Origin: a bacterium
Lineage (GTDB): Bacteria > Patescibacteriota > Minisyncoccia > Phycocordibacterales > UBA6899
Direction: 5' to 3'
DNA: 24,000 nt
Assembly: GCA_043742365.1 (NCBI GenBank)
Contig: JAYTYM010000065.1
Coordinates: forward strand, 11,909-35,908
This document shows positions 2,806 to 23,297 of the stretch, in pieces; position 1 is the first letter of the stretch; each line of letters starts with the position of its first letter. The translations under genes and the position numbers were made by a program. Below the pieces are notes generated by a model. That model made no database searches and was not told the origin of the DNA. It was given only the letters and a program-made list of their open reading frames with translations.

Positions 2806-2914
2806 TTTTAGCAGGGACTCTCGCCTTACAGGCGCTGTACATCCTTCGTATTTCGCAGGCGAAATATACTTAGGGTCTTCGAGCCCTGCCGCAAGCTTTG
2901 CTTGCTTGGGGGCA
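2806..2914. repeat. Family-A tRNA-3'-end-linked structured module, tRNA-Lys copy
   Basis: Read on the minus strand: TGCCCCCAA (revcomp of the acceptor 3' strand), hairpin GCAAGC/GCTTGC, GCAGGGCTCGAAGAC (revcomp of the T arm), long hairpin CCTAAGTATATTTCG..CGAAATACGAAGG, ATGTAC, hairpin CGCC-TGTAA-GGCG, then GAGTCCCTGCT (a degenerate copy of the tRNA's GAGCCCTGCT). Confidence 0.6.
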
Positions 2915-2918
2915 CAGC

Positions 2919-2942
2919 AAAAAACCGCTTACGCGGTTTTTT
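2919..2942. terminator. Bidirectional hairpin terminator between the module and tRNA-Lys
   Basis: AAAAAACCGC-ttac-GCGGTTTTTT, with an A-run on one side and a T-run on the other. Confidence 0.6.
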
Positions 2943-2947
2943 CCTGA

Positions 2948-3020
2948 TGCCCCCAGCAGGGCTCGAACCTGCGACCGTTAGCTTAAAAGGCTACTGCTCT
3001 ACCAGCTGAGCTATAGGGGC
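2948..3020 (-). tRNA. tRNA-Lys (anticodon UUU)
   Basis: The reverse complement folds as a cloverleaf. Acceptor is GCCCCTA/TGGGGGC, anticodon loop CTTTTAA, T arm GCAGGTTCGAGCCCTGC. CCA is not encoded. Confidence 0.93.
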
Positions 3021-3057
3021 ATTTATTTCTTAATTACAATTCTTTAGACCTCTCCAG

Positions 3058-3171
3058 TTTACCCTGATACCTACCAAAACAGCATATAGCGGCATTACTT
3101 GCTCACACTAACAAATTACTGACTACTTCACTTTACCCTGATACCTACCAAAACAGCACATAGGGGTATTT
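3058..3171 (-). repeat. Two tandem 74-bp units upstream of tRNA-Lys, each a degenerate copy of the tRNA 5' part
   Basis: 3058-3097 and 3132-3171 share tttaccctgatacctaccaaaacagca(t/c)atag(c/g)gg(c/t)att. Their reverse complements (GCCGCTATATGCTGTTTTGGTAGGTATCAGGG and ACCCCTATGTGCTGTTTTGGTAGGTATCAGGG) align to the tRNA-Lys 5' end GCCCCTATAGCTCAGCTGGTAGAGCAGTAGCC. Confidence 0.55.
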
Positions 3172-7468: not shown

Positions 7469-8044
7469 TTATTTGCGCCCTCCAAGAGTTTGAAGTGCTT
7501 TACGGATAATATCTTGAGTGGTCATGGATTCTTTGGCGAGCATTCGGACTAATTCTCGTGTGTCTTTGGGTGAGTACCCGAGCGCCTCGAGAGCATCGAG
7601 CGCTTCTGTTTCAGGTAAGGCTACACCACCTTCACGCTGGGTAATGTTTCCCATCTTATCTCGGAGTTCAAGGATGATCTTCTCTGCGAGCTTTTTTCCA
7701 ATACCTGAAACCTTGGTCATATACTCACTTTCACCGCTTGCAATGGCTGTAGCGAGGGTCGTGACATCAGCAAGTGCGAGGACACTCAACGCGCTTTTCG
7801 GTCCGATACCTGATATTCCGATAAGCAGACGAAAAAGTGCTATTTCGTCTCGCTTGCTAAAGCCATACAGATCAAGCGCATCTTCTTTGACCACCAAGTG
7901 TGTCCACAGACTGACTTTCTCGCCTTCTTTTGTGCTCTGCGCTGTTGCAGGTGTCACAGAGAGGGTATAGCCAAGGCCTCCCACATCCACGATAACAACG
8001 CGCTCTTCCTTAAACAGTACAGTGCCTGTGATGTGACCAATCAT
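7469..8044 (-). CDS. ruvA: Holliday junction DNA helicase subunit RuvA
   Basis: N-terminus MIGHITGTVLFKEERVVIVDVGGLGYTLSV. HhH motifs are GISGIGPKSA and VSGIGKKLAEKI. Length is 191 aa. Confidence 0.92.
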   Translation of the reverse strand: MIGHITGTVLFKEERVVIVDVGGLGYTLSVTPATAQSTKEGEKVSLWTHLVVKEDALDLYGFSKRDEIALFRLLIGISGIGPKSALSVLALADVTTLATAIASGESEYMTKVSGIGKKLAEKIILELRDKMGNITQREGGVALPETEALDALEALGYSPKDTRELVRMLAKESMTTQDIIRKALQTLGGRK

Positions 8045-9080: not shown

Positions 9081-9300
9081 GGGGAAGCTCCATTACATGG
9101 ACGGTACACCTTTCGTATTTCGCACCACGGAGAGTACTTAAAAATTACAGTACTCGAGAGCCGTAGGCACTCGCATTCTTCAAAGTGGATTACCGCTAAG
9201 AAGAATTGGGTCGCTCGATGTCATGTTTAGTCGAAGACGAAATATATTCAAGGTTTTCGATAGGATATCTCTGCTTAAAGCAGAAGTACCTCTTTCCCAT
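9081..9300. repeat. Family-A module, distal copy at the tRNA-Arg(GCG) locus, interrupted
   Basis: 9090-9122 matches 9367-9399 with 1 mismatch in 33 nt. 9232-9261 matches 9398-9427 with 1 mismatch in 30 nt. The two halves are separated by 109 extra nt. Confidence 0.55.
9123..9231. mobile_element. 109-nt insertion in the apex of hairpin 2 of the distal module (family-B-like sequence)
   Basis: The intact paralog reads cgtatttcgaagacgaaata (9391-9410). The interrupted copy reads cgtatttcg-[109 nt]-cgaagacgaaata, with CG on both sides. The insert carries agagtactt-N8-cagtactcgag, which also occurs at 21052-21079. Confidence 0.5.
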
Positions 9301-9330
9301 TTACTAAGGATAAGAATCCTTCATAAATAT

Positions 9331-9466
9331 GGGTGAAGGGCTTCGATTCCTCGATAGGAGTATCTTCCATTACGTGGACGGTACACCTTTCGTATTTCGA
9401 AGACGAAATATACTCAAGGTTTTCGATTCCTATTCAGAAGCCGAGCAGTTGGCTTCTTCTCGGGCA
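9331..9466. repeat. Family-A module, proximal copy at the tRNA-Arg(GCG) locus
   Basis: Minus strand reads TGCCCGA, GAAGAAGCCAACTGCTCGGCTTC hairpin, ATAGGAATCGAAAACCTT, GAGTATATTTCG-tctt-CGAAATACGAAAGG, TGTAC, CCA-CGTAA-TGG, then TCCTATCGAGG (a copy of the tRNA T-stem/acceptor). Confidence 0.6.
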
Positions 9467-9513
9467 TGTTATACAAAAAGACAGCACAATGTGCTGTCTT
9501 TTTGTATAACATG
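9465..9513. repeat. Perfect 23-bp inverted repeat with a 3-nt loop, probably a bidirectional terminator
   Basis: 9465-9487 (catgttatacaaaaagacagcac) is the exact reverse complement of 9491-9513, with loop aat. The right arm overlaps the last 2 nt of tRNA-Arg. Confidence 0.8.
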
Positions 9514-9583
9514 CCCTCGATAGGAATCGAACCTATATTTAAAGTTCCGCAAACTTTTGTCCTATCCATTGAACGACGAGGAC
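9512..9583 (-). tRNA. tRNA-Arg (anticodon GCG)
   Basis: Reverse complement is GTCCTCG-TC-GTTC-AATGGATA-GGAC-A-AAAGT-TTGCGGA-ACTTT-AAAT-ATAGG-TTCGATT-CCTAT-CGAGGGC-A. All four stems pair. Confidence 0.88.
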
Positions 9584-11474: not shown

Positions 11475-11494
11475 CATTGGGACAAATTATTTAT

Positions 11495-11603
11495 TTGTCA
11501 CAGTAGAGAGGAGAGAAAGTGCCTCGCGGAACTTTCAGGTGAGATTCGAAAGACTTTTCGATGCCGATTCAGAGAGGCCGAAAAGTACCTGCCGATGTAA
11601 TCG
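11495..11603. repeat. Family-A module, tRNA-Ser copy
   Basis: Plus strand reads GAGAGGAGA, GAAAGTGCCTCGCGGAACTTTC hairpin, AGGTGAGATTCGAAAGAC (revcomp of the T arm), CTTTTCG..CGAAAAG hairpin, TAC, GCCGA-TGTAA-TCGGC, and then direct repeat 2 of the tRNA end. Confidence 0.55.
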
Positions 11604-11604
11604 G

Positions 11605-11683
11605 CGAATCTCACCTCCTCCACATTGGGATAAATTGTTTATATTCGAATGTCACCTCCCCCGCACCGGGACAAAATTTACAG
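11605..11683 (+). repeat. Second and third direct copies of the tRNA-Ser 3' end plus trailer
   Basis: cgaatctcacctcctccGcattgggaCaaattAtttat (11457-) compared with cgaatctcacctcctccAcattgggaTaaattGtttat (11605-). A third, more diverged copy is ttcgaatgtcacctcccccgcaccgggacaaaattt (11644-). Confidence 0.7.
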
Positions 11684-15232: not shown

Positions 15233-15240
15233 GTTTTCGG

Positions 15241-15378
15241 GTGGGCGATAGAGGATATTCGACCCCTACTGGGTCAGTACACCTTTGCCATTTTTTCAGA
15301 TTAGGAAATCTTCAAAAATAAGGCAGAAGGTTTTCGAATCCTCTAGCGAAAGCCACGCAGGTGGCTTTCTTCGCCCAC
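15241..15378. repeat. Family-A module, tRNA-Val copy (best preserved)
   Basis: 15241-15256 gtgggcgatagaggat is identical to 15408-15423. Minus strand reads GTGGGCG, GAAAGCCAC-ctgc-GTGGCTTTC, TAGAGGATTCGAAAA, CCTTCTGCC...GGCAAAGG, TGTAC, GACCC-agta-GGGGTC, GAATATCCTCTATCGCCCAC. Confidence 0.7.
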
Positions 15379-15408
15379 GACAAAGGCCACCTGACGGTGG
15401 CCTTCTTG
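15379..15408. terminator. Hairpin terminator between the module and tRNA-Val
   Basis: AAGGCCACC-tgac-GGTGGCCTT (15383-15404). Confidence 0.6.
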
Positions 15409-15653: not shown

Positions 15654-15725
15654 CTCCCCGTAGTTCAATGGATAGAACGAAAGCCTTCTAAGCTTTAGAT
15701 CTAAGTTCGATTCTTAGCGGGGGGA
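15654..15725 (+). tRNA. tRNA-Arg (anticodon UCU)
   Basis: CTCCCCG-TA-GTTC-AATGGATA-GAAC-G-AAAGC-CTTCTAA-GCTTT-AGAT-CTAAG-TTCGATT-CTTAG-CGGGGGG-A. The first base pair is C1:G72, which is unusual. Confidence 0.85.
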
Positions 15726-15733
15726 TCAAGAGT

Positions 15734-15762
15734 AAAAAAAATCTGCCCTGCGGCAGATTTTT
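15734..15762 (+). terminator. Intrinsic terminator after tRNA-Arg(UCU)
   Basis: An A-run, then ATCTGCC-ctgc-GGCAGAT, then TTTTT. Confidence 0.7.
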
Positions 15763-15780
15763 AGCTTGATCCGGCCGGAG

Positions 15781-15905
15781 TGATGTTGCGAGTCCTCGAG
15801 AAACCACGAGGCGAGGTCACGAGCACTTAACAGAATTCAAGCGCAGCGAAGAATTATGTTTAGTGACTTGGGGCACTATGCGAAGTTCAATGCCAAGGTA
15901 TCATG
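15781..15905. repeat. Family-B repeat copy downstream of tRNA-Arg(UCU)
   Basis: ggtcacgagcactta / gcgcagcgaa / ttagtgacttg / ggcactatgcgaa / ccaaggt parallel ggtcgcaagtactta / gcgaagcgaa / ttagtaacttg / ggcactttcgcga / ccttggt at 20595-20682, in the same order. Confidence 0.45.
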
Positions 15906-20525: not shown

Positions 20526-21121
20526 GCCCAAGAGAGGACTTGAAAGACGGAGGCGGTCTACGATTTCGCTTTGCGAAATTGTCGCCGAGTCGGGGTCGCA
20601 AGTACTTATGAGCGAAGCGAATTAGTAACTTGTGACCAAGTCCTCTACAGGCACTTTCGCGAGAGGACTTGAAAACCTTGGTGCGACCAAATTTTTCTTT
20701 GATGTCCTCATCTTAGAAAAATTGAAGTACTCTTGTGGTGATGTTTTGGCTTTGCAAAACCACCAAGGTGTACCGTCCCCGTAGGGGAAAAGTCCTAACT
20801 TGAAAGACGGAGCCTATGTTTCGCCAGCGACCAAAAACTCTTGAGCGTAGCGATTAGAGATTTGAAGTACTCCTGTGGTGCATGCGAAACCGCGAGCGAC
20901 ATTATTTGCTTATGAGCTAGCGAATTTAGCAAATAAGACGTGCCTGTGGCGCGGGGTCGCAGAAATTTCTGAGCGACCAAAAGTATGCGACCAGAGTGAG
21001 ATAAAATTGGAAGCACTCTTTGTGGTGTGGCGACAAAAAAATATCACTACAAGAGTACTTCCAAATTTCAGTACTCGAGGACACGATGAAGTTTTAGGTC
21101 GCTGTGACAAAGTCCTCCACA
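20526..21121. repeat. Series of three tRNA-Leu(GAG)-linked modules (families A and B), each ending in a copy of the T-arm 3' half
   Basis: AAGTCCT(C/A) occurs at 20462 (the tRNA), 20638, 20790 and 21110. The inverted tRNA end tagcccaagagaggacttgaa is at 20526. The 15-mer acttgaaagacggag is at 20538 and 20798. gcgaccaaa..ttgaagtactcYtgtggtg recurs with a period of about 145 bp. Confidence 0.6.
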
Positions 21122-21149: not shown

Positions 21150-21671
21150 CTATTCACTGACTACAGTTACAAATTCAACTGCCGTCTTTGGTTCCACAAA
21201 GAACTTTTCTGTTTGTGTATAGCGAACTCCTTGAATCTGCGGCTTTTCTTTTAATAGCGCTTCTTTGTCGATGGATTCTATGTTGCGGATATATTTCGTC
21301 AGCTCAAGACTCTTGAGAATGTCTAGGATCTTTTCATCGCCGCCACGTCCGGCAGTCACCTTAGGCGGAGTCAGTCTCCACCCGAATATCCCCGAAGAAA
21401 GAGTGACTGTTTTCTTGTCGGCAGCAAGTAATTCTTGCCGATGCTTCACTGCGAATAGTTTGATATTCACTACATGATTTGCAGTTTGTGCCTGAAGTGG
21501 TTTTATCGCCGCATCTGCTTCTTGGCGCAATGTCGCAACTTTTTCTGCAAGTTCGCGTTCGATAGTTTCGGTTGAGCGTACCAGAATACCCACAATGTGT
21601 AGGACGCCATTTGCCTCATCGATGTTTTGTATAGGATGAATAGGGGTCGATTTTTTTGCTCGGCTCATCAT
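21150..21671 (-). CDS. gam: Phage Mu Gam-like host-nuclease inhibitor (DNA-end-binding) protein
   Basis: 173 aa. The segment GIFGWRLTPPKVTAGRGGDEKILDILKSLELTKYIRNIESIDKEALLKEKP parallels Mu Gam GDVSWRVRPPSVSIRGMDAVMETLERLGLQRFIRTKQEINKEAILLEP (recalled from memory). The N-terminal half is coiled-coil. Confidence 0.8.
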   Translation of the reverse strand: MMSRAKKSTPIHPIQNIDEANGVLHIVGILVRSTETIERELAEKVATLRQEADAAIKPLQAQTANHVVNIKLFAVKHRQELLAADKKTVTLSSGIFGWRLTPPKVTAGRGGDEKILDILKSLELTKYIRNIESIDKEALLKEKPQIQGVRYTQTEKFFVEPKTAVEFVTVVSE

Positions 21672-21811: not shown

Positions 21812-22834
21812 ATGGAAACGAACATCGTCTCTCTGCCGCACATCACGCAATACCACGCTTCGATCCAGAATCCACACTTTGACGTTGATCTCGTTACAAC
21901 GAACATTTTTGAAAAGCACGGGCAAGTGATAATGATCGATCCAAGGCGGGTGCAGCCGCTGTCTGATCAGCCTCGCCAAAGCTCGAACCCCGGATTCAGT
22001 CTCGAGTCGATTGCCGCACTTTCGATGTGTATTAGTGCTGAAGGCCAGATCGAACCGGCACTCATTGCTCCGCCGACCAAGTCGGGGTGGGACGCAGCTC
22101 TCGTTGATGGCGAACGCAGGCATCGCGCGTGCCTGCATGGCAACATGATGCTTATGGCGCGCGTTGACTTGAGCATCACGAACCCAGAAGAGCACTTCGT
22201 GAAATCAGTGATGGCCAATTTCCACAGGGAAGGCCATACGTGCATCGAGATCATGTATGCGGTTAAGCGTATGCAGACAACTCGCACGAGAGAGCAGATC
22301 GCTACCGTCTTTGGTCGCTCTGTGCAATGGGTGGATCTACATATCTCGCTCATGCGACTCGACGAAGCGCTACACCCATTTCTTGTCGATCAAGAAGTAG
22401 AGCAAGAGGGTGATGGCACAGGCGAGCAAGTCGAAATCAAAAAGCGAGGTCGCAAGCAAACGGGTAAGCTGACATTTCAGCTCGCTCTTGTTATTTCTGG
22501 TTTGCCCAAAAGCGATCAGATGAATGTCGCCAAGGAGGTGCTTGGTAAACGAATGCCCTACGATGTAGCCCGCAGATACGTATTGCGCTATATCGACGAC
22601 AACGGCATTGTTACGAAATATTCGAAGCGTTCGCCGAGCGAGTCATTTCAGTCGCTTGAAAAAGCGGCTGGTACCGCTGAAAATAAATTTGGTGTTTTCA
22701 TCGACAAGAATCCGCGCACACTTCGTGAACTTTTTGATACTCAGTCCCCGATGGACCGTAGATTGCTTGCAGAAAAGCTCCGACTTCTAAGTGTAGATAT
22801 TTCGTCACTTGCGGATATCCTGTCACCTCAGTGA
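21812..22834 (+). CDS. ParB/Sulfiredoxin N-terminal domain protein with HTH (ParB/KorB-like); no ParA partner
   Basis: A ParB box is present (ALVDGERRHRAC). An HTH-like segment follows (TREQIATVFGRSVQWVDLHISLMRL). Length is 340 aa. It is transcribed divergently from gam. Confidence 0.75.
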   Translation: METNIVSLPHITQYHASIQNPHFDVDLVTTNIFEKHGQVIMIDPRRVQPLSDQPRQSSNPGFSLESIAALSMCISAEGQIEPALIAPPTKSGWDAALVDGERRHRACLHGNMMLMARVDLSITNPEEHFVKSVMANFHREGHTCIEIMYAVKRMQTTRTREQIATVFGRSVQWVDLHISLMRLDEALHPFLVDQEVEQEGDGTGEQVEIKKRGRKQTGKLTFQLALVISGLPKSDQMNVAKEVLGKRMPYDVARRYVLRYIDDNGIVTKYSKRSPSESFQSLEKAAGTAENKFGVFIDKNPRTLRELFDTQSPMDRRLLAEKLRLLSVDISSLADILSPQ

Positions 22835-22909: not shown

Positions 22910-22991
22910 TGGGCGTGGGGAGACTCGAACTCCCAACCCTTACGGGATACGCTTCTGAGACGTACGCGTATACCAATTCCGCCACACGCCC
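22910..22991 (-). tRNA. tRNA-Leu (anticodon CAG), long variable arm
   Basis: Reverse complement: acceptor GGGCGTG/CACGCCC, anticodon arm TACGT-CTCAGAA-GCGTA, variable arm TCCCGTAAGGGTT, T arm GGGAGTTCGAGTCTCCC. Confidence 0.92.
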
Positions 22992-22993
22992 AC

Positions 22994-23297
22994 TCACCAC
23001 ACAAACTTTCTATACTCCGCTCCTGAGACGTACGCGACTATATTCTTTTGCAATTCCCCCACACGCCCACTCACCACACAAACTTTCTATACTCCGCTCC
23101 TGAGACGTACGCGACCATATTTATTTGCAGTTCCTCCTCACACTCACTGCACAAGTTCTCTATGATTACGTTTATTAGACGTAAGCGACTATATTCTTTT
23201 GCAATTTCACCACAAACCCAGATGTTCCAATAACATTTATGCTTCGATTCTAAGGCGTACGAGACCTCATTCTTTGGCAGTTCCCCCTTCTAGTCAC
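22994..23297 (-). repeat. Tandem array (4 units, 74-77 bp) of degenerating copies of the tRNA-Leu(CAG) upstream spacer plus 5' two-thirds
   Basis: Units start at 23023, 23100, 23174 and 23250, and each resembles 22955-22993 of the real gene. The 29-nt spacer tcaccacacaaactttctatactccgctc is identical at 22994 and 23071. Similarity decays with distance from the gene. Confidence 0.75.

Follow-up and report, generated by a model that had tools for sequence, protein, structure and literature searches.

What is the non-coding, hairpin-forming DNA that lies beyond the terminator of a tRNA-Lys gene in a member of the Paceibacteria, and how does it come to carry copies of that tRNA's own 3′ end? Paceibacteria have tiny genomes in which tRNA genes are single-copy. 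We analysed the stretch of 24,000 nucleotides that holds this gene (the 24-kb window, to which all coordinates refer) together with loci from Patescibacteria metagenome-assembled genomes (MAGs) and metagenomes, which are cited by locus numbers with the prefix L.

Architecture of the module beside tRNA-Lys

The tRNA-Lys(UUU) gene occupies 2948–3020 on the minus strand (Rfam tRNA, 68.9 bits; ARAGORN, 2946–3021) and does not encode CCA. It is followed at 2915–2947 by a bidirectional terminator-like palindrome composed of an A-tract, a CCGC/GCGG stem and a T-tract (AAAAAACCGC-TTAC-GCGGTTTTTT), which is absent from the output of a simple terminator consensus scan because its T-run falls within the counted stem. 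Beyond it lies the module, approximately 105 nt of non-coding DNA at 2810–2914. A preliminary description of this DNA had given its extent as 2806–2914; the terminator-side limit holds, but 2806–2809 (TTTT) are flank. The segmentation of the minus strand proposed there agrees with ours except for three dropped bases.

From the terminator outwards, with all parts given on the plus strand, the module begins at 2907–2914 with window 2, a copy of the tRNA-Lys acceptor 3′ strand and discriminator (TGGGGGCA) that is inverted relative to the gene and kept in L029, L030 and L032. Hairpin 3 follows at 2890–2906 (CGCAAGC TTT GCTTGCT), placed exactly at the T-stem/acceptor junction of the copy; it shows covariation and is 17 nt long here, compared with 23–26 nt at most loci. 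Positions 2876–2889 hold a T-loop-like box and window 1, a copy of the T-stem 3′ strand (TCTTCGAG CCCTGC). Next come hairpin 2 at 2843–2875 (base CCTT...AGGG, arms GTATTTCG/CGAAATAT), near-identical to hairpin 2 of the tRNA-Arg(GCG) copies; a conserved single-stranded GTACA box at 2837–2841 with near-invariant columns; and hairpin 1 at 2821–2835 (CGCC TTACA GGCG), whose stem covaries among copies and whose loop (TTACA/TAC) is conserved. Window 0 ends the module at 2810–2820. It is the reverse complement of the T-loop end and T-stem 3′ strand of tRNA-Lys, pairs with 2880–2889 and, in tRNA sense, repeats the tRNA 3′ end directly but in truncated form (GAGTCCCTGCT). This direct-orientation repeat at the far end had been overlooked before. 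The tRNA end, the terminator and the inverted copy join in one large palindrome near 2930, as had been claimed, with 26-nt arms at 2903–2928 and 2933–2958 that are 81% complementary.

Related modules in the 24-kb window

The same architecture is found at five of the seven tRNAs of the window. At tRNA-Arg(GCG) it forms an array of three tandem cores on the plus strand (9085–9511). Core 1 (9087–9262) carries a 108-nt insertion at 9123–9230 in the hairpin-2 loop; cores 2 and 3 (9269–9347 and 9364–9428) are followed by hairpin 3 at 9434–9459, the acceptor copy at 9460–9466 and a terminator palindrome with 27-nt perfect arms at 9462–9516. The tRNA-Val(UAC) module, also on the plus strand (15240–15407; folding z = −7.2), starts with the reverse complement of the tRNA 3′ end plus CC (15240–15262) and continues with hairpin 1, GTACA, hairpin 2 (15282–15330), the T-loop/T-stem copy, hairpin 3 (15346–15370), the acceptor copy (15371–15377) and the terminator. 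Two modules lie on the minus strand. That of tRNA-Ser(UGA) (11476–11683; core 11545–11606; folding z = −5.0) has two more direct repeats of the tRNA 3′ end and its downstream flank, at 11605–11642 and 11646–11683. That of tRNA-Leu(GAG) (20526–20810; core 20721–20790, with extra small palindromic insertions) includes, at 20526–20544, a perfect copy of the tRNA 3′ end that is 19 nt long and inverted, and a second, partial copy at 20660–20676. The tRNA-Arg(UCU) gene has just a short extension (GGATCAAG/CTTGATCC). Other small palindromic elements gather at the same spots as the modules, and partial 5′ tRNA copies occur in tandem upstream of tRNAs.

The sharing of hairpin-2 arms between the Lys and Arg(GCG) modules, noted earlier by eye, is borne out by local alignment (69 nt, 75% identity, score 35; dinucleotide shuffles score 9.0 ± 1.4, hence z = 18). 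The Arg and Val modules also align (z = 12.5). For Lys and Val the primary sequence similarity is not significant (z = 1.4), and the covariance model alone links them (61.6 and 67.1 bits).

Distribution and linkage to tRNA genes

With the covariance model of the core we recovered about 120 copies from Patescibacteria MAGs and metagenomes. Approximately 75–80% of these are convergent with a tRNA or tmRNA gene, typically 54–88 nt away, with arms that match that tRNA: about 36 of the 47 matches in the 24-kb window plus 28 MAG loci have a convergent tRNA, as do 50 of the 64 evaluable matches in an independent metagenome set, 37 of them at 54–88 nt. The orientation of the module relative to the tRNA is invariant. 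The preliminary description had overlooked that the feature spans the whole lineage.

We also searched 79 non-redundant tRNA and tmRNA genes for the reverse complement of the acceptor 3′ strand plus discriminator, allowing at most one mismatch in 8. An inverted copy starts 28–57 nt downstream in 32 of them, compared with 5 upstream and 0 when the query was shuffled; inverted acceptor copies downstream of tRNAs are not due to chance. Hairpin 3 measures 23–26 nt in 24 of these 32 loci. In the sampled loci the scaffold is present on about 40% of tRNA/tmRNA genes, including the tmRNA of L019, and the same core classes adjoin Arg, Leu, Ile, Gln, Val, Tyr, His, Cys, Lys and Ser tRNAs, with arms that always fit the neighbour.

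Core turnover and conservation between relatives

Core similarity is independent of tRNA identity and of phylogeny. Identical tRNA genes can adjoin cores that are merely 58–73% alike, and different tRNAs in different MAGs can adjoin cores that are 90–99% alike; in the tRNA-Tyr loci L018 and L027 the genes are 87% identical and the cores 95%. At the orthologous tRNA-Lys locus, four relatives have four different cores: the core is swapped, and the flanks, hairpin 3 and terminator are retained. The inverted acceptor copy is present at all of the relatives' tRNA-Lys loci examined (L029, L030, L032/L033), so the relatives do not show the general absence that the preliminary description had named as evidence against its proposal. 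That proposal was a mosaic of a portable core and locally templated ends. The portable core with tRNA-specific ends stands, on the evidence of the many tRNAs served and of the swapped Lys cores. Local templating of the ends would be one way to obtain it; alternatively, the element could insert into the tRNA gene and bring its own tRNA 3′ end, or an ancient tRNA-specific scaffold could exchange its core by gene conversion.

A close relative, L034 (PilM 97% identical), has one core at tRNA-Arg(GCG) compared with three in the window, and in this single core hairpin 2 alone is replaced. Between the same two genomes, the Val module together with its terminator and tRNA shows ~98% identity, whereas third-codon positions of neighbouring genes differ by 41–47%. 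The Ser module is 98% identical, against 87% for its decaying distal repeats. Identity of ~98% in unreplaced modules points to purifying selection, that is, function, or to very recent gene flow. Some tRNA cassettes have opposite orientations in different relatives.

Direct repeats, arrays and a copy inside an ORF

The units are flanked by direct repeats of the tRNA 3′ end, which measure between 10 and more than 80 nt. At about 14 of 33 loci the distal copy is complete, and at the others it is truncated. At the window's Val locus and at L013, L027 and L010 it ends in CC(A/C/G), though the gene does not encode it; at L020 and L009 the gene encodes CCA or CC and the distal copy carries the same; at other loci the copy includes the gene's own downstream flank. 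The window's Ser locus has three such repeats, including 18 nt of flank. A repeat that extends into the downstream flank implies duplication at the DNA level, and we therefore rejected retro-copying of the mature tRNA as the general source (window Ser, L001, L022); for the CC(A)-ended distal copies it is possible.

Arrays of palindromic units with alternating orientation and linker motifs, variable in number, occur at Arg(GCG) (9085–9511), L024, L022, L037 and L014. In tandem arrays the tRNA-proximal unit outscores the distal one in 5–6 of 7 cases, and L029 retains a decayed older unit distally. Modules also exist apart from tRNAs (L007, L017, L019, L046–L086), in a defence-like island, as a 5′-type variant and as a copy inside an ORF. 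The latter, a single case, lies in frame in an ABC-F ATPase gene (L073, 2499–2744; 246 nt, 82 codons, no stop) and falls between positions that are adjacent in PoxtA 7p7q; solved homologues are continuous there. None of these tRNA-less modules is an autonomous copy with a protein gene.

A candidate mobile cassette at tRNA 3′ ends

We propose, with a probability of roughly 0.5, that the module is a Paceibacteria-specific, non-coding, non-autonomous, hairpin-forming mobile or recombining DNA cassette anchored at tRNA/tmRNA 3′ ends. What we observed directly comprises the architecture, arms specific to each tRNA, cores decoupled from both tRNA and phylogeny, core turnover at orthologous loci, tandem arrays and the ORF insertion. 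In tRNA sense, a locus runs from the tRNA ending in segment A (T-loop to discriminator) through the terminator palindrome, the reverse complement of A split by the ~25-nt hairpin 3, then hairpin 2, GTAC and hairpin 1, to a direct copy of A. As to how units enter, which enzyme acts and how the windows are templated, we infer the following. Units would enter at the tRNA 3′ end, regenerating that end, bringing a terminator and displacing the old end outward. Recombination or gene conversion, acting through the conserved ends of the scaffold and the universal T-loop box, would then carry the core from locus to locus and from genome to genome, and the short tRNA-matching windows may be kept matched via the palindrome formed with the tRNA gene.

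In the loci covered, which span 2–15 kb for the MAGs, no transposase, integrase or HUH gene was found beside any copy, and the copies show neither conserved terminal inverted repeats nor a regular short target duplication. A 5-bp TTCGA duplication around the core was discarded, given that loci with a TTCAAG T-loop (L016, L022, L010) have an inverted CTTGAA left flank. A simple cut-and-paste element is an inadequate description because the tRNA-specific windows (5 nt, 8 nt and complement) sit inside the portable scaffold. Origin from a phage or plasmid was likewise rejected: the core pattern is absent from IMG/VR, and blastn with a full module gave no match in 50,697 phage records and, among 72,556 plasmid records, only a short match to the tRNA end of the query. 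Since the layout combines a conserved scaffold with target-matching windows, we considered, and rejected, membership among IS110 bridge RNAs, TnpB omega RNAs, H/ACA-type guides, T-boxes, split or permuted tRNAs and group IIC introns; no cognate protein lies nearby, the windows are same-sense and contiguous on the target, the sizes misfit and catalytic-domain sequences are absent. Full-text literature searching found no published description of a tRNA-end hairpin cassette.

A possible but distinctly less probable alternative is an RNA: the module would be expressed, structured, kept by selection and linked to tRNA expression. Such a role is kept in play by the ~98% conservation of unreplaced copies against ~43% third-codon divergence. 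It might take two forms: a read-through switch of three elements, similar to an attenuator, in which element 2 (the inverted copy) would pair either with element 1 (the tRNA 3′ strand) or with element 3 (the distal copy); or a tRNA-like minihelix of acceptor and T stems, with hairpin 3 replacing nucleotides 8–48 and a 3′ end of discriminator-CC(A). In tRNA sense the topology is indeed tRNA-like, and ACCA or ACCC ends several distal copies. Conservation extends to the loops TTACA and GTACA and to the T-loop box, and folding z-scores range from −2 to −7. Double-sided changes affect 18 of 21 consensus pairs, and compensatory changes occur in all three hairpins; they fit an RNA too, but self-templating of DNA hairpins can mimic them.

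The preliminary description had also suggested that read-through RNA could sequester the acceptor 3′ strand, and here the agreement is confined to folding in silico. The tRNA, terminator and module are predicted to fold at −100.9 kcal/mol in tRNA sense, with the T-arm and acceptor 3′ strand paired to the inverted copy and the cloverleaf lost; without the module, the acceptor stem is predicted to form. Sequestration presupposes read-through of the A-tract/GC-stem/T-tract hairpin, and the inverted copy has an alternative pairing partner in the distal direct copy of the tRNA end.

Several observations speak against an RNA. The module is without a promoter, and at tRNA-Val, where it lies between two terminator-like hairpins, there is no space for one. 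The full closing stem is found at the window's Val and Ser loci, L027, L010, L013 and others; its acceptor part is absent or truncated in about half of the copies, including that at tRNA-Lys and many class-b copies with near-identical cores. Core classes are freely swapped at one locus, which is unexpected for a locus-specific regulator. Rfam gathering scans return tRNA and tmRNA only, with nothing over the module at E ≤ 1, and a known RNA family was rejected. We also abandoned the choice of a functional strand from thermodynamics, as the tests conflict: G-U versus A-C counts (33 vs 13) favour the module sense, minimum free energy favours the tRNA sense (the more stable fold in 34 of 45 copies) and consensus-structure energy has no clear bias.

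More doubtful is the idea of a self-programming device, in which a conserved scaffold (hairpin 1, GTACA, hairpin 2, T-loop box, hairpin 3 and terminator) holds three short windows rewritten to fit the adjoining tRNA. As DNA, it could be a folded single-strand attachment site by which a host recombinase loads cassette DNA into tRNA/tmRNA 3′ ends; anchored at tRNAs, served by an integrase in trans and supplied with DNA by natural transformation, it would be a counterpart of integron cassettes. As RNA, its middle arm could toggle between the tRNA 3′ strand and the decoy copy.

It is unlikely, in our view, that the units arose by site-specific integration via an attachment site folded from single-stranded DNA, comparable to integron attC or CTXphi attP(+), a reading which overlaps with the mobile cassette and differs solely in the chemistry of entry. 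The reverse complement of A, the core and A would form a forked hairpin with a stem that imitates the tRNA 3′ end in duplex form, hairpins 1–3 would be strand-marking protrusions, and a host tyrosine recombinase in trans would insert the unit, perhaps from DNA taken up by a competence pilus, into the tRNA gene. This predicts exactly the order tRNA-A(new), cargo (terminator), reverse complement of A, core and A(old), with the newest unit beside the tRNA. The boundaries of A, from the T-loop to the 3′ end, are reportedly those typical of tRNA-integrating elements; consensus-structure energy without strand asymmetry fits DNA, and PilMNO genes lie in the window. However, no recombinase was found and no unit with gene cargo was seen, the attC R′/R″ consensus is absent, many distal A copies are truncated so that their stems cannot fold, and the acquisition of tRNA-specific stems is left unexplained.

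Least likely of all, and improbable, is a passive by-product of palindrome-driven template switching or fold-back repair at heavily transcribed tRNA genes, with the shared core an old repeat homogenised by gene conversion and lacking mobility or function: the long perfect palindromes that take in tRNA ends (27-nt arm at Arg(GCG), 19-nt arm at Leu(GAG)), the short extension at Arg(UCU), the tandem 5′ copies and the inverted tRNA cassettes would suit it, but the hairpin 3 insertion stays at 25 nt and within a related sequence family from one tRNA or genus to another, cores 90–99% identical sit at different tRNAs of MAGs that differ at species level, one copy is inside an ORF and conservation is far above neutral expectation. 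Horizontal spread and insertion polymorphism, which would contradict such an origin, are partly seen already.

Comparison with known systems

The proposed mobile cassette shares features with several known elements. Like the REP/BIME sequences of enterobacteria and pseudomonads, it is extragenic, located after genes or between convergent genes, and is a mosaic of palindromic units with alternating orientation, two alternating kinds of linker and a copy number that varies between strains; both have a short conserved motif beside a hairpin (GTAG in REP, GTAC here) and no protein in cis. In contrast to the generic units of REP, its alternating units copy the adjacent tRNA's own 3′ end, and it is strictly linked to tRNA/tmRNA genes. 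Rickettsia palindromic elements are likewise hairpin-forming selfish repeats of ~100–250 nt in a reduced genome that occur between genes, within or beside RNA genes and, in frame, inside protein-coding genes (here in one case, L073), but they lack tRNA-specific arms and do not keep a set position with respect to tRNA terminators. As for miniature inverted-repeat transposable elements (MITEs), the module is small, non-coding, multi-copy and polymorphic in content between relatives; it differs in its inverted arms, which are locus-specific tRNA copies, and in its flanking repeats, which are not of fixed length.

Integrative elements of tRNA genes are also flanked by direct repeats of the tRNA 3′ end and restore the tRNA, and integrase-less, CIME-type tandem accretion likewise yields arrays with older, partial tRNA ends placed distally. 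The module differs in its units of ~150–190 bp without integrase or cargo, in the added inverted copy of the att segment, split by a hairpin, and in that one scaffold serves at least 20 different tRNAs. No tyrosine or serine integrase was found in the units, their neighbours in the window, L007 or the annotated loci; ORFs neighbouring the window modules encode PCC, Mu Gam-like or weak ParB_N matches or are without family.

With attC and CTXphi attP(+) it has in common inverted half-sites ~60–100 nt apart that fold into a forked or branched hairpin, conserved in structure and free in sequence, with one-strand protrusions that could mark the strand; as in integron cassette arrays, the newest member is beside the entry site. 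Unlike these sites, it has no link to IntI or Xer and no R′/R″ boxes; its stems copy the tRNA end rather than a recombinase consensus, and its 'cassettes' hold the terminator only. Membership among integron attC sites was rejected: the nearest GTT box, GTTCGAA, misfits GTTRRRY, the protrusion is a 25-nt hairpin and no integrase was seen.

Finally, plant mitochondrial t-elements, mascRNA and the tRNA-like domain of tmRNA resemble the module in combining an acceptor-like stem with a T-stem and a T-loop box and in having a discriminator, in some cases with CCA, at one end. In contrast to these processing elements, the acceptor stem of the module is often incomplete, an insertion of ~80 nt opens the T-loop and each module mimics its own neighbouring tRNA.

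Implications for Paceibacteria

Each scaffold-bearing tRNA/tmRNA gene of these organisms bears a welded-on, hypervariable and horizontally exchanged cassette. If the module is mobile DNA, it would represent a new safe-harbour route for a selfish element, by copying the end of an essential RNA gene, and would readily serve to track gene flow and recombination in uncultured CPR lineages. A functional module would bear on the termination and maturation of CCA-less tRNAs in Paceibacteria. Should the self-programming device prove true, in its DNA or its RNA form, it would constitute a new, CPR-specific class of tRNA-linked genetic element. Whether the module is mobile DNA or functional, annotation, binning and the calling of prophages and att sites should not take the tRNA flanks of CPR MAGs for ordinary intergenic DNA.

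Results

Anatomy of the tRNA-Lys module

The gene for tRNA-Lys(UUU) (2948-3020, minus strand) is followed by an A-tract/GC-stem/T-tract palindrome (2915-2947), and its module lies beyond this palindrome, on the side away from the tRNA. In module sense, here the plus strand, its parts are, in order, AGCAGGGACTC (2810-2820), which reverse-complements the T-loop end and T-stem 3′ strand of tRNA-Lys; hairpin 1 (CGCC-TTACA-GGCG); GTACA; hairpin 2; TCTTCGAG-CCCTGC, a T-loop box and then a T-stem 3′-strand copy; hairpin 3 (CGCAAGC-TTT-GCTTGCT); and last TGGGGGCA, which copies the acceptor 3′ strand and discriminator. Hairpin 1, GTACA and hairpin 2 form the core. The segmentation in the preliminary description was correct save for a few dropped bases and 4 flank bases, and the tRNA 3′ end, terminator and inverted acceptor copy do form the single palindrome proposed there, with 26-nt arms centred near 2930.

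The module architecture occurs at five of the seven tRNA genes in the window: Lys, Arg(GCG), Val, Ser and Leu(GAG). Pairwise alignment upheld the claimed kinship of the Lys and Arg(GCG) modules (69 nt, 75% identity, z = 18 against dinucleotide shuffles), and the Arg and Val modules align with z = 12.5; Lys and Val are alike in structure, which is their only link, but not by pairwise alignment. At the Arg(GCG) locus three cores stand in tandem, and hairpin 2 of one of them holds a 108-nt insertion. The Val and Ser modules are predicted to fold with three branches on a long closing stem (folding z = −7.2 and −5.0). A perfect palindrome (9462-9516; 27-nt arms, 1-nt spacer), whose length and perfection are unusual for a bacterial chromosome, takes in the final five bases of tRNA-Arg(GCG) (9512-9583). 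The usual bacterial tRNA-Arg anticodon is ACG; the GCG found here is kept in the related loci L009, L034, L037 and L039.

An Rfam scan of the window returned no family besides the tRNA genes. Its gene content (adenylate kinase, alanine dehydrogenase, RuvA, Mur ligase, PilMNO, UppS, RluD, L19) points to a Patescibacteria (CPR) genome near Lloydbacteria/Paceibacteria.

A conserved layout that copies the adjacent tRNA

In tRNA sense, a tRNA ending in segment A (its 3′ part, T-loop to discriminator) is followed by the terminator, a reverse-complemented A that hairpin 3 interrupts, the core, and A once more as a direct copy. This distal copy takes three forms. It is full length and followed by CC(A/C/G) at six loci (the window Val locus, L013, L027, L010, L020 and L009), the first four of which have a present gene without CCA; full length and joined to a duplicate of the flank downstream of the gene itself (the window Ser locus, L001, L022, L023, L006); or cut off at the T-stem/acceptor junction (the window Lys and Arg loci and many others). 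From this layout, the portable sequence holds three short tRNA-specific windows, of which 1 and 2 flank hairpin 3 and 0 is the complement of both.

A degenerate core pattern matched 28 stretches among 185,579 species genomes, all Patescibacteria and mostly Paceibacteria, and 55 metagenome contigs, with no match in IMG/VR; because retrieval rested on this one pattern, other core classes are under-sampled. A core covariance model, short-calibrated and with rough E-values, gave 47 good copies in the window together with the 28 genome stretches, and 67 in the metagenome set. Of the 47, about 36 face a convergent tRNA, and between the core and the 3′ end of that tRNA there are 54-370 nt (54-84 nt in 25 of them); in the metagenome set, 50 of 64 evaluable copies are convergent (37 at 54-88 nt). 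Partner tRNAs are Arg (five anticodons), Leu (five), Ile (two), Val (two), Gln, Tyr, His, Cys, Lys and Ser, and in every case the arms copy their own partner.

Counted independently of the core, 32 of 79 tRNA/tmRNA genes are followed by their acceptor 3′ strand and discriminator in reverse complement, which starts 28-57 nt downstream (controls, 5 and 0). Since the T-stem 3′ strand reverse complement comes 23-26 nt (mode 25) after it in 24 of these 32, hairpin 3 is a defined insertion at the T-stem/acceptor junction. The tmRNA gene of L019 (4400-4645) also has this scaffold: a terminator, the acceptor 3′ strand in reverse complement, a 25-nt hairpin, and T-stem and T-loop in reverse complement, with a second-type unit next in place of the main core.

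Core turnover and conservation

Orthologous tRNA-Lys loci were located in relatives through the adjacent PCC-domain gene. L030 has the flanks, hairpin 3 and terminator of the window, but its core differs and is most like the middle one at the window's Arg locus; in L029 the core is different again, as are hairpin 3 and terminator, and a decayed window-type unit lies distally; L032 and L033 carry a Ser-type core. At Arg(GCG), L034 (PilM 97% identical to the window) has one core against three, only hairpin 2 being exchanged, L037 has two, and L039 another cassette type. Core and tRNA similarity are decoupled across MAGs: cores are merely 58-73% alike at 100% identical tRNA genes and 90-99% alike at different tRNAs, and between the tRNA-Tyr loci of L018 and L027 the genes are 87% and the cores 95% identical. 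In L073 (2499-2744), a 246-nt copy (core plus second-type unit) lies in frame, with no stop codon, within an ABC-F ATPase gene, just past the Walker A helix; the flanking residues are adjacent in solved homologues (PoxtA 7p7q, continuous there). As judged from these comparisons, locus turnover, decoupling and the copy inside an ORF show a core that is apparently mobile, both horizontally and ectopically.

Between the window and L034, the genes for PilM, PilN, PilO and the tRNA-binding protein diverge by 41-47% at third-codon positions, whereas identity is ~98% over the Val module, terminator and tRNA, with a sharp left edge exactly where the distal tRNA-end copy has the complement of its ACC; identity is 98% for the Ser module and 87% for its distal decaying repeats. 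Such strong conservation of unreplaced modules implies one of two things: selection is purifying, or tRNA and module have recently spread by gene flow as one whole block.

Repeats and rearrangements around the tRNA genes

Tandem repeats with units of 74-77 nt lie directly upstream of tRNA-Lys (3047-3170) and tRNA-Leu(CAG) (22949-23296); directly upstream of tRNA-Val, L034 has four 37-nt units (7800-7990) that the window lacks. In each of these units the tRNA 5′ end (acceptor 5′ strand and D arm, e.g., ...CTGATACCTACCAAAACAGC + AGCTATAGGGGC) recurs in degenerate form, so tRNA 5′ ends gather partial copies, like 3′ ends. In a 5′-type arrangement upstream of tRNA-Ala(CGC) (L014 6905-7440, L041, L008 1-260), the main core stands in tandem, each copy preceding a TTGGGTCCCAACCCAA hairpin, TCTTCAAC and a reverse-complement copy of the tRNA 5′ two-thirds, broken at the variable loop.

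A second small palindromic family (GGTCAC/GGTCGC ... AGTTACTAA ... AGTACT ... GCGACC) is often nested in or adjoins modules (window 9123-9230, 15790-15870 and 20560-21100; L006 3650-3700; L021; L039 7960-8060), and adjoins tRNA-Arg(UCU) without the main module. Between close relatives, tRNA-Arg(UCU) (window 15654-15770, L034 8008-8079, L039 8147-8219) and tRNA-Ser with its module (L039 3946-4036) stand in reversed orientation against the genes beside them; tRNA genes seem able to invert as blocks. Amid repeats between tRNA-Leu(GAG) and tRNA-Leu(CAG), a Mu Gam-like protein (PF07352, E = 3e-25; 21150-21671, minus strand) and a weak ParB_N-domain protein (21812-22834, plus strand) may be the remnant of an integrated element. 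L007 (5037-5300) has an Arg(UCU)-type module without its tRNA partner, broken four bases into the tRNA complement (GTCC|), which suggests that a different element uses the extreme tRNA 3′ end as its site; the ORFs past the break, in which inspection without family-library comparison revealed no obvious integrase, are taken to be a defence-type island.

Discussion

We hypothesize, with a probability of roughly one half, that the module is a non-autonomous hairpin-forming DNA cassette, which would enter at tRNA 3′ ends and whose interior would then be exchanged by recombination. This reading fits best because of the direct repeats of tRNA ends, arrays tending to better preservation beside the tRNA, free core exchange between loci and species, the copy inside an ORF, the clustering of other small palindromic elements at the module sites, and the lack of promoter space and of any protein in cis.

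An expressed RNA, which would be a three-element switch within read-through transcripts or else a tRNA-like minihelix, is a distinctly less probable explanation. The strong conservation of unreplaced modules speaks for it, and the earlier proposal that read-through RNA could sequester the acceptor 3′ strand, a special case of it, is predicted by folding to be thermodynamically feasible. The RNAalifold consensus comprises hairpin 1, the base and interior of hairpin 2 and hairpin 3, with double-sided changes in 18 of 21 pairs; the hairpin 2 base covaries (ACCTT/AAGGT, AGTCT/AGACT, AGGCT/AGCCT, CCCCA/TGGGG, AGGTT/AACCT). Compensatory change is not proof of selection on RNA, since palindromes in this genome seem self-templated. 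Strand comparison gives 33 G-U against 13 A-C in module sense, a minimum free energy lower on the opposite strand in 34 of 45 copies, and about equal scores of the consensus structure on both strands.

Integration of a folded single strand into segment A, in the style of attC or CTXphi, would be a mechanistic variant of the cassette; it predicts exactly the part order seen, and we consider it unlikely. The arrangement recalls folded att sites, though without attC boxes, and tRNA-att arrays, though without an integrase. A purely passive origin by template switching is the most improbable, leaving the constant hairpin 3, the cross-species core identity and the conservation of modules unexplained.

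In its working, the cassette comes closest to REP/BIME mosaics and Rickettsia palindromic elements. It has no conserved terminal repeats, no fixed target duplication and no Rfam model, it fails the defining tests of each compared family where these could be run, and our literature search found no description of a tRNA-end module. We therefore file it with the extragenic palindromic mobile repeats, as one with the unusual property that its arms copy the adjacent tRNA.
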